25,633 bases of DNA, from contig JBDGSE010000010.1 of NCBI GenBank assembly GCA_042217695.1, forward strand, positions 1 through 25,633. Reading direction: 5' to 3'. Shown piece by piece: positions 24,353-25,633 of this stretch (the first letter of the stretch is position 1; the number at the start of each line of letters is the position of its first letter). A program made the position numbers and the translations under genes. The DNA comes from Candidatus Nanohaloarchaea archaeon. GTDB lineage: Archaea > Nanohalarchaeota > Nanosalinia > Nanosalinales > Nanosalinaceae. The notes beneath the pieces were generated by a model. The model was not told the origin of the DNA. It saw nothing but the letters and a program-made list of their open reading frames with translations, and did not search any database.

Positions 24353-25093
24353 ATGGCCACGGACCCGCACACCCACACCACCTACTCTGACGGAGAGTTT
24401 CCAGAGGCGATGGCCTCGGCCGCGGAAGAACACGGGCTGGACGGCATAGGTTTCGCGGACCACCTGCTGCCCGGGCTTGACGAAAGAAGGCAACACTACG
24501 GCATGAACATGGATATCCCCGAGGTACGGGAAAGACGGTCGGAAGCCATCGAGAAGATGAGGGACGAGTACAGTATACAGATATGGGACGCCGCCGAGAT
24601 AGACTACCTTCCGGGGATAGAGCTCGAGGAAACTCTGCGGAACACGGACTTCGACTACGTTCTTGGGAGCGTCCACTACCTCGACGGAGACCACGTGCTC
24701 GCGGAAAGACATTTCTCAGGCCTCGATAAGGGACAGCGGGAACAGAAAGTAGACCAGTACTTTGACTCGCTGGTGGACATGGTGGAATCTGAGCTGTTCG
24801 ATGTAGCCGCACATCCCGATGCGATCGAGAACAACCAGTACCTCGAACCGCTGGTCACTGAAGAACACTACGACCGGCTCTTCCAGGCCTTCCGTCGCTC
24901 GGACACTTTACCAGAGATAAACGCCGCGAAGGCCCTGGAACCCGAGACCTCGTTCTACAGAAGGTGGAGGGACGAGGACCTAGAGTTCTCCTTTGGAACT
25001 GACGCGCACTCCCCGTCAGAACTGGAGGAGAGAAACAGGCTGCGGGAGGGCCTGGAATCAGAACCCGTTCCAGTAGAGGAATTCACGGGTTAA
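24353..25093 (+). CDS. PHP-family phosphoesterase (histidinol-phosphatase HisK/HisJ-like)
   Basis: DPHTHTTYSDG, FADH, DYVLGSVH, AAHPD, EIN, GTDAH. Confidence 0.88.
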   Translation: MATDPHTHTTYSDGEFPEAMASAAEEHGLDGIGFADHLLPGLDERRQHYGMNMDIPEVRERRSEAIEKMRDEYSIQIWDAAEIDYLPGIELEETLRNTDFDYVLGSVHYLDGDHVLAERHFSGLDKGQREQKVDQYFDSLVDMVESELFDVAAHPDAIENNQYLEPLVTEEHYDRLFQAFRRSDTLPEINAAKALEPETSFYRRWRDEDLEFSFGTDAHSPSELEERNRLREGLESEPVPVEEFTG

Positions 25094-25192
25094 AGAAAGC
25101 CTTTTTTAGTTTGCCCATTCACCTATTCAACGTTAACCCACTGAAGTCCATGCAGTTCGCATGGTCTGTGATGATCGAACTTTCAGAAGTTC

Positions 25193-25382
25193 GGACCACT
25201 AGCTCAGGGGTTAGAGCACCGTCCTTATAAGGACCCCACGCTGAAATCACTGCCGAAAGGCCAGCGTGGTGGCCTCCAAAAGCGCCAGCTTGCTGGCTCC
25301 GGTCGTAGACCGGAAGATCTGCAAACTGGATCGCCAGTTTTGAGAGAGGCGGCGGTCCCGGGTTCGAATCCCGGGTGGTCCA
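25193..25382 (+). tRNA. tRNA-Ile(UAU) with a 117-nt intron at canonical position 37/38
   Basis: Acceptor GGACCAC/GTGGTCC plus A73, D arm GCTC/GAGC, anticodon stem CCGTC/GGCGG, anticodon TAT at 25226-25228, T arm CCGGG-TTCGAAT-CCCGG. CCA is not encoded. Confidence 0.9.
25230..25346 (+). other. tRNA intron with bulge-helix-bulge junction
   Basis: Central helix CUUA (32-35) pairs with UGAG (25341-25344). The 3-nt bulges are UA^A and AG^A, and the outer helix is GGAC/GUUU. Confidence 0.85.
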
Positions 25383-25432
25383 TCCCTGCGGGATGAAAAA
25401 CCGGTTTCGAACATAGAAAAATTGTTTTCGCA

Positions 25433-25452
25433 TTCGGATCCCGGGTGGTCCA
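25433..25452 (+). repeat. Direct repeat of the tRNA 3' end (att-like)
   Basis: TTCGGATCCCGGGTGGTCCA versus TTCGAATCCCGGGTGGTCCA at 25363-25382 (19/20 identical). Confidence 0.85.
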
Positions 25453-25608
25453 ACTCATTAACCGTTCGTTGGACTCCCATCCACTAAACCACGGGTTTCT
25501 GGAAGGGGTCCGACCGTGGAAGGGGTCGCTGGCCTAGTTCCAGAGGATTTTCAGGGCTTTTCCACGGTAAATAGTAGTTTTTTTATTCGGCGGAGAGACT
25601 GTAGGTTT

Positions 25609-25633
25609 ATGGAGTATCTGTTGATACTGATGG
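25609..25633 (+). CDS. Possible start of a truncated gene (MEYLLILM...)
   Basis: ATG about 30 bp after a TTTTTTTAT tract and a hydrophobic start; only 8 codons are visible. Confidence 0.3.

Follow-up and report, generated by a model that had tools for sequence, protein, structure and literature searches.

According to the available text of two papers, the intron of eukaryotic tRNA-Ile(UAU) is required for pseudouridines 34 and 36, which are made by Pus1, and in yeast the same intron prevents the Elongator-dependent modification ncm5U34 (PMC4090602, PMC11408192). In archaea, the pre-tRNA-Ile(UAU) of ARMAN-2 (Ca. Micrarchaeum) contains a 25-nt intron at position 37/38, and ARMAN is described, in the available part of the same report, as having neither TiaS nor tRNA-Ile(CAU) (Fujishima et al. 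2011, PMC3239211). A tRNA-Ile(UAU) gene is also stated for both Korarchaeum cryptofilum and Nanoarchaeum equitans, with an intron in the Korarchaeum gene (PMC6000648, available text). The tRNA-Trp introns of Haloferax volcanii and other euryarchaea carry a box C/D guide, as far as the accessible text goes (PMC11408192).

Here we describe the tRNA-Ile(UAU) gene of a nanohaloarchaeon (DPANN), which is located at 25193-25382 of the window, i.e. the whole stretch of 25,633 nt that was analysed. The assembly comprises 757 kb in 44 contigs with 55% G+C and is 83% complete, and the prolyl-tRNA synthetase (ProRS) encoded on the same stretch is 76-82% identical to that of Nanohaloarchaea MAGs. As far as the ARMAN report is available, the situation resembles ARMAN-2 in that a DPANN archaeon uses tRNA-Ile(UAU) as AUA decoder, has no TiaS and carries a canonical bulge-helix-bulge intron at 37/38. 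It differs in that the ARMAN-2 intron comprises 25 nt without an internal hairpin module and occurs together with a three-unit epsilon2 endonuclease, whereas here we found a conserved core of ~50 nt plus a 65-nt insert and a single 184-aa endonuclease unit. With the eukaryotic system, as portrayed in the accessible text, the locus has in common the tRNA, the intron site, the pairing between anticodon and intron, the retention of the intron in all members examined and the presence of Elp3; unlike there, TruA/Pus1 was not found (5/5 genomes) and splicing is of the archaeal bulge-helix-bulge type. The euryarchaeal tRNA-Trp intron likewise holds a long conserved RNA module inside an archaeal tRNA intron but, in contrast to the guide-bearing type outlined in the text at hand, the present intron has no C box (at most one mismatch), one non-conserved CUGA and no K-turn. 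Korarchaeum and Nanoarchaeum share the rare archaeal UAU decoder, intron-containing where stated; they belong to different phyla, and a conserved intron hairpin is absent from the descriptions in the available text of PMC6000648.

From ARMAN, a 37/38 intron in tRNA-Ile(UAU) together with the absence of TiaS is already known (PMC3239211, in the part available). New are the order-wide, covarying, single-copy core with an A-rich bulge and the division of the intron into this core and a local insert, as well as the contrast with introns that get lost and the position of AUA as the leading Ile codon. A full-text literature search over main texts returned no description of a conserved hairpin in the nanohaloarchaeal tRNA-Ile(UAU) intron.

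The gene was identified in two ways. With introns allowed, ARAGORN called a tRNA-Ile(tat) at 25193-25382, and the Rfam tRNA model RF00005 matched the same interval with 46.8 bits and a 118-nt insert after position 37. From both programs and the sequence, exon 1 (tRNA positions 1-37) was assigned to 25193..25229, with the anticodon TAT at 25226-25228, and exon 2 (positions 38-73) to 25347..25382, with the CCA not encoded. The parts of the gene and its promoter-like box lie on the forward (+) strand. Placed by hand, the intron occupies 25230-25346 and thus 117 nt; it interrupts the canonical 37/38 site, and without it the exons yield a cloverleaf with the anticodon UAU and the identity Ile. Without introns, ARAGORN called a tRNA-Leu(gag) at 25306-25385; this is a false call that combines the last part of the intron with exon 2.

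In most archaea TiaS makes agmatidine on tRNA-Ile(CAU). We searched for TiaS with PF08489 and obtained one weak match of 23.8 bits among 57 genomes of the same order, against matches in 3/4 outgroup archaea and 4/4 archaeal control genomes. In the 288 ORFs of at least 300 codons, ATA makes up 52.9% of the Ile codons (28.1 per 1000 codons), with ATT at 2.4 per 1000; the 13 Pfam-backed genes of the window contain 115 ATA, 114 ATC and 5 ATT codons. Since AUA accounts for about half of the Ile codons, tRNA-Ile(UAU) is a major decoder and its errors would be costly, and it is probably the sole decoder of AUA. In archaea without agmatidine, a UAU anticodon has to be stopped from reading AUG.

For comparison, 61 related genomes were searched by BLAST, and the gene was present in 55 of them. 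With 20 extra regions and 42 metagenome loci added, the set having both exons amounted to 77 loci with 67 distinct introns. Eleven of the 20 extra regions were missed by the exon-1 pattern; ARAGORN resolved these into 8 tRNA-Ile(UAU) genes with introns and 3 fragments. The counts leave out the 3 fragments, which lack exon 1, and three metagenome loci ending inside the intron (L075, L095 and L111). This gives 85 complete loci, and in 85/85 an orthologous intron is found at the same site. The intron lengths range from 37 to 146 nt and are mostly 50-57 nt.

The exon-intron junctions could be folded by hand into a bulge-helix-bulge motif. C32-U33-U34-A35 of exon 1 (25224..25227) form the exon strand of a central 4-bp helix H, the intron strand being UGAG at 25341-25344. 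The bulges comprise 3 nt each, namely U36-A37-A, in which the A is the first intron base, and A-G-A38; the AG that follows UGAG (together 25341..25346, a URRG-like element) is the intron part of the 3' bulge (AG/A38). The inner helix h' consists of G2 and G3 of the intron, which are part of GGAC at intron positions 2-5 (25231..25234), with the CC of GGCCUCC. The same GGAC has a second complement in exon G29-C32. The 3' strand closing on GG(A)CC is UGGCCUCC (25270..25277), and according to alignments and a motif tally (U)UGCCU(CC) is kept in relatives. The gene has in this way two bulges, the helix between them and an outer and an inner helix flanking them; a 63-nt insert parts the inner helix from helix H, so that a strict motif requires the insert to stack out.

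The same elements were obtained with RNAalifold from 48 orthologues having introns of at most 65 nt, with no structure hint given. The output contained the anticodon stem, helix H, a two-pair inner helix h' and a 7-bp hairpin 1. In helix H the pairs were C32:G (48/48), U33:A/G and U34:G/A; in h' intron G2-G3 paired with the CC of GCCUCC (G:C/U and G:C). The base opposite C32 is G in 67/67 distinct introns, helix H has 4 bp in 39 of them, against 3 bp in the remaining 28, and intron positions 2-5 read GGAC in 66 and GGAU in one.

The original prediction had proposed that the intron folds into four helices, and all four were found at the bases it gave. Hairpin 1 (25236..25269), which belongs to the conserved core, has an 8-bp stem in which CCACGCTG (25236-25243) pairs with CAGCGTGG (25262-25269), an 8-nt bulge AAAUCACU on the 5' side (25244-25251) and the cap GCC-GAAA-GGC (25252-25261). 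Hairpin 2 (25284..25297) is GCCAG-CTTG-CTGGC, hairpin 3 (25298..25314) TCCGGTC-GTA-GACCGGA and hairpin 4 (25323..25340) AAACTGG-ATCG-CCAGTTT. The minimum free energy (MFE) fold of the 117 nt consisted of exactly these four hairpins and a closing helix AGG.CC/GGCCU. Its energy was -53.4 kcal/mol (z = -5.06), 0/200 shuffles were as stable, and the MFE structure holds just 0.28 of the ensemble. When the hairpins were folded singly, hairpins 1, 3 and 4 clearly beat the shuffles (z = -5.05, -3.70 and -5.00, respectively). Hairpin 2 alone had z = -1.87, was matched by 24/200 shuffles and is not clearly better than these. The segment of hairpins 2-4 alone gave z = -3.59 and favours an alternative pairing of CUGGC with GCCAG.

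A motif search of the intron found a single CUGA, but neither an ACA nor, with up to one mismatch allowed, a C box, so the reported absence of a C/D box pair and of a terminal ACA was borne out. At gathering thresholds Rfam gave 0 matches in the whole window, and at E-values up to 10 within 25050-25633 only the tRNA model covered the gene. The Rfam scan suggested earlier thus confirmed that the intron fits no catalogued RNA family.

Comparison with the relatives separates the intron into two parts. Each complete orthologous locus (n = 85) contains hairpin 1 together with the 5' element GGAC and the URRG strand on the 3' side (GGAC is GGAU in 1/67 distinct introns). The core is composed of N-GGAC(C)(U), hairpin 1, (U)UGCCU(CC) and the URRG-NN 3' strand and comprises ~50 nt. 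In the relatives hairpin 1 has a 7-10-bp stem and an A-rich run at the 5' side of the loop or bulge, often with a small distal stem and a GNRA or other cap. The cap therefore varies, and the GNRA tetraloop, taken earlier as a sign of selected structure, is not a conserved feature. The AAA of the A-rich bulge is present in 54/67 introns and is not universal. The stem occurs as CACGCAG/CUGCGUG, CACACAG/CUGUGUG, CGCACAG/CUGUGCG, UGCGCAG/CUGCGCA, CGUGCUG/CAGCACG, CAGCUCUA/UGGAGCUG and in other variants, with the pairing intact.

Covariation was tested on a MAFFT alignment of 33 sequences for 11 pairs of hairpin 1. All 11 pairs had changed on both sides (47 cells), and 88.2% of the cells were paired. 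The covariation score was 0.420 compared with 0.219 for shuffles, and 0/500 shuffles scored as high; kinship alone can beat shuffles, but both the controls in which the partner was slid by 1-3 columns, with 25-53% paired, and RNAalifold as an independent result speak against this explanation. Of the covariation looked for in all four helices, the part concerning hairpin 1 stood, as this hairpin is conserved with compensatory changes across the order, and the part treating the four helices as one RNA did not. Mean ungapped pairwise identity reached 0.62 within intron positions 1-17, compared with 0.94 within exon 2. As it was only 0.27 in the 20 nt before the tRNA and 0.28 in the 20 nt after it, the flanks are saturated, in contrast to the core.

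A covariance model of the core had one match in this genome, the intron itself, with 54.4 bits. Within the phylum the model matched once in each of 39 out of 70 genomes and twice in one genome. Broken down by family, it matched in 37/49 genomes of family f1 and in 1/20 of other families. From these sequences the core is diverged outside f1, where AUAUC-like loops are found and the A-rich bulge is not preserved; in one relative the intron measures 37 nt and contains just a short hairpin. Judged by the same sequence comparisons, the core of tRNA-Ile(UAU) is common to no other intron and is inherited vertically, not transposed.

The remaining part of the intron, an insert of 63-65 nt with hairpins 2, 3 and 4 (25278..25340), is situated between GGCCUCC (25271-25277) and UGAG (25341-25344) and none of the 66 other distinct introns holds anything comparable. 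In the short introns of relatives the GCCUCC and URRG elements are adjacent or one base apart. The view of four helices as one conserved RNA was given up, since hairpins 2-4, including the CUUG loop, lack a counterpart in other loci. The AACUG...CAGUU stem of hairpin 4 is the only part belonging to a recurrent class, which is found near tRNA genes. Other lineages have different inserts at the same place, among them a recurrent 5-bp stem with a UCN loop (CCAGC-UCU-GCUGG, GCGAGC-UCA-GCUCGC) and, as another type, an AACUGCC...GCAGUU hairpin. Hairpins 2-4 would accordingly be an expansion segment and presumably dispensable. Repeated modules inside the intron were ruled out, as blastn-short of the intron against its own genome gave only chance matches of 12-13 nt and the covariance model had a single match.

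This genome is rich in long structured introns (17/25 ARAGORN tRNA calls, several of 98-144 nt), and introns of different tRNAs have sequence modules in common. In 2010 Fujishima et al. reportedly described expanded and transposed bulge-helix-bulge introns in tRNA genes of Thermoproteales. The nanohaloarchaeal genome is similar in its many long introns and in modules common to introns of different tRNAs; in contrast, the tRNA-Ile(UAU) core was not found in other introns and points to vertical inheritance.

We then compared how readily the intron is lost. An intronless tRNA-Ile(UAU) was found in 0/85 loci (the 77 loci and 8 further ones, all with a 37/38 intron). In the same relatives, 30 loci retrieved with the tRNA-Lys(UUU) gene of this genome comprised 11 intronless genes, 18 with introns and one that is a tRNA-Lys(CUU); the tRNA-Lys introns have 26-214 nt and belong to unrelated sequence types. 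For tRNA-Ile(GAU), taken from the same set of loci, 10 of 20 were intronless, 9 had an intron and one was ambiguous. Only two tRNAs served as controls, and the genomes, being related, do not count as independent samples. Since introns are gained and lost readily in this group, yet 0/85 losses and one homologous core are seen here, retention in tRNA-Ile(UAU) looks selected. The proposal of an intron with selected structure in this tRNA was upheld in that hairpin 1 covaries and no orthologue is without the intron, whereas other tRNA introns are gained and lost.

Enzymes of splicing and modification were surveyed in this genome and four near-complete relatives. The splicing endonuclease EndA is present in 5/5 genomes in the same form, one 184-aa gene with an N-terminal and a catalytic domain. 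By its size and domain content alone we take it to be a single-subunit (alpha4-like) enzyme with a narrow substrate range; a divergent second subunit beside it is possible. The ligase RtcB was likewise found in 5/5 genomes, so that both endonuclease and ligase are encoded. TruD and Cbf5/TruB each occur in 5/5 genomes, as does Elp3, whose copy in this genome combines the domains ELP3_N, radical-SAM and GNAT. For the TruA/Pus1 family (PF01416) the count was 0/5 nanohaloarchaeal genomes, four of which are 95-98% complete, against 13/14 controls. Of the eukaryotic Pus1 system, the locus has a 37/38 intron of tRNA-Ile(UAU) that is predicted to pair with the anticodon; the synthase family was not found in any of the 5 genomes searched.

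The intron itself was also considered as a guide RNA. A box C/D guide of the tRNA-Trp type was rejected, as neither a C box (up to one mismatch) nor a K-turn was found and the single CUGA at 25241-25244 reads CAGA, CGGA or other forms in relatives. An H/ACA guide inside the intron was dismissed as well, because the intron lacks an ACA and hairpin 1 has its bulge on one side only. In the search for an H/ACA guide across the exon-intron junction, one bipartite complement of 19 bp was obtained in this genome (contig C10:1674-1730); it was rejected as chance, since it falls within a 377-aa ORF and lacks an upper stem. Exact guide patterns matched in 0/61 and 3/61 genomes, with as many or more matches for reversed-pattern controls; these patterns allow no G-U pairs or mismatches, so that a diverged guide would be missed. 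One of the six pattern matches is the tRNA gene itself. With no TruA/Pus1 enzyme in 5/5 genomes, no guide boxes in the intron and no guide RNA candidate, the yeast mechanism that had been considered for the anticodon is as such unsupported.

We favour the reading, at a probability of about 0.55, that the single-copy tRNA-Ile(UAU) carries a canonical bulge-helix-bulge intron made of an old, cis-acting core of ~50 nt and a local insert, and that the tRNA needs this intron. The two layers would be the old core (5' N-GGAC, hairpin 1, (U)GCCUCC and URRG-NN) and the lineage-specific insert. The 3' strand would pair with C32-A35 and thereby bury U34 and A35, and U36-A37-N and N-N-A38 would be presented as two 3-nt bulges for cleavage. 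Hairpin 1 would stack on the GG/CC inner helix, extending and locking it; the alpha4-like single-subunit endonuclease would cut, and RtcB would join the exons. The tRNA would have to pass through this precursor state, most plausibly so that its anticodon is kept paired, or is modified, before its release to a translation that discriminates AUA from AUG. Judged from the sequences, the core is most likely a cis-acting element of the precursor, and it is possible that it gates an anticodon modification. Hairpin 1 may also be a mere extension of the inner helix for a strict endonuclease, which would account for the covariation yet leave the retention unexplained. An intron whose core is kept only as a cleavable bulge-helix-bulge fold, its universal presence being a historical accident, seems a rather improbable explanation: long structured introns are frequent in this genome (17/25 tRNA calls, several of 98-144 nt), hairpins 2-4 look like neutral expansion and the intron length varies between 37 and 146 nt, but the 0/85 losses against 11/30 for Lys(UUU) and 10/20 for Ile(GAU) in the same relatives do not fit, and the conservation exceeds the needs of a bulge-helix-bulge motif (unpaired A residues; GGAC in 66/67).

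A further step beyond the cis-acting core would be that the paired anticodon and hairpin 1 with its A-rich bulge form a recognition platform for a factor, an idea to which we attach limited credence. Such a factor might, though we hold this doubtful too, modify U34 or U36 on the precursor or shield U34 from Elp3 until another mark has been set. Only correctly marked tRNA-Ile(UAU) would reach the ribosome, in a tentatively proposed convergence with the eukaryotic Pus1-intron system that would employ a non-TruA protein. Universal retention of the intron as opposed to its frequent loss in the two control tRNAs is consistent with this, as are the unpaired A residues conserved in sequence beside a covarying stem and the predicted pairing of U34 and A35 with the intron in every orthologue (helix H of 3-4 bp). 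Elp3 in 5/5 genomes means that a U34-modifying enzyme which might need keeping off does exist, TruD and Cbf5/TruB are there in 5/5 genomes, and by analogy the yeast intron, in the available text, both allows pseudouridine 34 and prevents ncm5U34 (PMC11408192). These points are set against the TruA/Pus1 count of 0/5 versus 13/14 controls, an intron without C/D or H/ACA features, a best H/ACA-like complement that lies within the 377-aa ORF and lacks the upper stem, guide patterns (0/61 and 3/61 genomes) not above the reversed controls, and a bulge motif that is not preserved outside family f1. The earlier suggestion of a stable circular non-coding RNA can be extended: once excised, the intron would act in trans, probably as a circle, with hairpin 1 as its functional part. 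The core is indeed conserved, covarying and single-copy, and archaeal introns circularise, with the tRNA-Trp class acting in trans according to the accessible text of PMC11408192; yet guide boxes and a long conserved single-stranded segment for target pairing are missing from the intron, no Rfam family is similar to it, and conservation falls precisely on the segments in contact with the exons (GGAC, GCCU and URRG), which makes this reading very unlikely.

Archaea have no nucleus to order the processing steps, unlike eukaryotes. A retained intron with a covarying hairpin that is unique in the genome mirrors the one tRNA intron of eukaryotes proven to act in anticodon modification. If the anticodon were indeed licensed on the precursor, the latter would be held unusable, a wobble-base enzyme would be recruited or excluded, and only the marked AUA decoder would be released; if the core is only a splicing scaffold, this would be an ordinary intron whose history of expansion is well documented. 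The question is testable in cultivated nanohaloarchaeal co-cultures.

The window also encodes genes of the archaeal exosome and proteasome, Rad50/Mre11, FttA and a HalX response regulator. Upstream of the tRNA gene a promoter-like AAAGCCTTTTTTAG box is found at 25094..25108, which from its position we take to be of the BRE/TATA type. In many relatives a AAGCCTTTTTTAGA box is situated ~35-45 nt upstream of tRNA-Ile(UAU); with the AAAGCCTTTTTTAG box ~85 nt upstream, the leader is longer here than in the relatives.

The tRNA-Ile(UAU) gene is preceded by a leader (window positions 25141-25193) that contains an insert of about 45 nt in comparison with most relatives. Its upstream part reads CUGA-AG-[UCCAUGC...GCAUGG]-UCUG-UGAUGA, i.e. 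a hairpin flanked by a box-D-like (CUGA) and a box-C-like (UGAUGA) motif, and because these motifs surround the hairpin we consider the insert a K-turn candidate. It is followed, within the same interval, by a second hairpin, CGAACUU-UCAG-AAGUUCG, whose 3' end is G1 of the tRNA. The two-part module recurs in the genome of the window (G000) immediately 5' of tRNA-Leu(GAG) on contig C31, where 26 of 26 positions are identical, in antisense orientation 3' of tRNA-Gly on C16, and in a further copy at C1:326. It is also present in the tRNA-Ile leaders of the related genome G007 and of the related locus L083. Across the copies the stems of the hairpins covary.

Downstream of the tRNA (25383-25452) the trailer contains a T-arm-like hairpin, CCGGUUUCGAAC-AUA-GAAAA..UUUUC-GCA-UUCGGAUCCCGG, and after this hairpin the last 20 nt of the tRNA are repeated (25433-25452 versus 25363-25382, 19 of 20 positions identical). 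This region might be the scar of an integration event or, alternatively, a structured trailer linked to the tRNA. Elements of a similar kind, in which the inner stem covaries, are situated 3' of tRNA-Leu(UAG) on C19 and of tRNA-Leu(GAG) on C31, and a repeated tRNA 3' end was also found downstream of tRNA-Ile(UAU) in the related genomes G003 and G054.

The palindrome AACTG-N4-12-CAGTT occurs at 15 sites in G000, compared with about 4.8 expected from mononucleotide shuffles, and eight of the 15 are located inside tRNA genes or at most 121 nt from them, among them the one in hairpin 4 of the tRNA-Ile(UAU) intron (25324-25339). One hairpin, ACUGGUUACGC(U/C)CAGU, opens four other tRNA introns of G000 and is also found outside introns, adjoining tRNA-like ends; the sites listed for it are C6:15735-15936, C12:6305-6498, C30:52522-52667, C16:10833-10977, and C36:46059. 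In the same genome the Thr(CGU) intron resembles the Lys(CUU) intron over its full length.

The gene at C4:3529-3754 of G000 was labelled tRNA-Arg(tct) with a 136 nt intron by ARAGORN, but it has a long variable arm. Inspection by eye favours a class II tRNA, and the gene is probably tRNA-Ser(CGA), interrupted by an intron at 37/38. This intron has at its 3' end the module of UGAUGA plus hairpin that also occurs in the leader of tRNA-Ile. In other families, six tRNA-Lys(UUU) introns (L139, L140, L149, L151, L153, and L154) have the motif pair AAAGC(A/G)CUGAG...CGAUGA(U/C) in common, which looks like a box D'/C' pair; owing to this resemblance a K-turn of the C/D type may be present in them.

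With regard to decoding, AUA is the most frequent isoleucine codon in the 288 long open reading frames of G000 (52.9% of the isoleucine codons), and AUU, at 2.4 per 1000, is nearly avoided. The same isoleucine codon pattern is seen in the 13 Pfam-backed genes of the window.

The window ends in 55 bases (25579-25633) that are identical to C14:1-55 of G000, and for this reason the window contig and C14 probably abut. In the related genome G009 the RtcB match is in two pieces within a single open frame of 951 amino acids (C1:317691-320414), about twice the usual length, which may contain an intein-like insertion.
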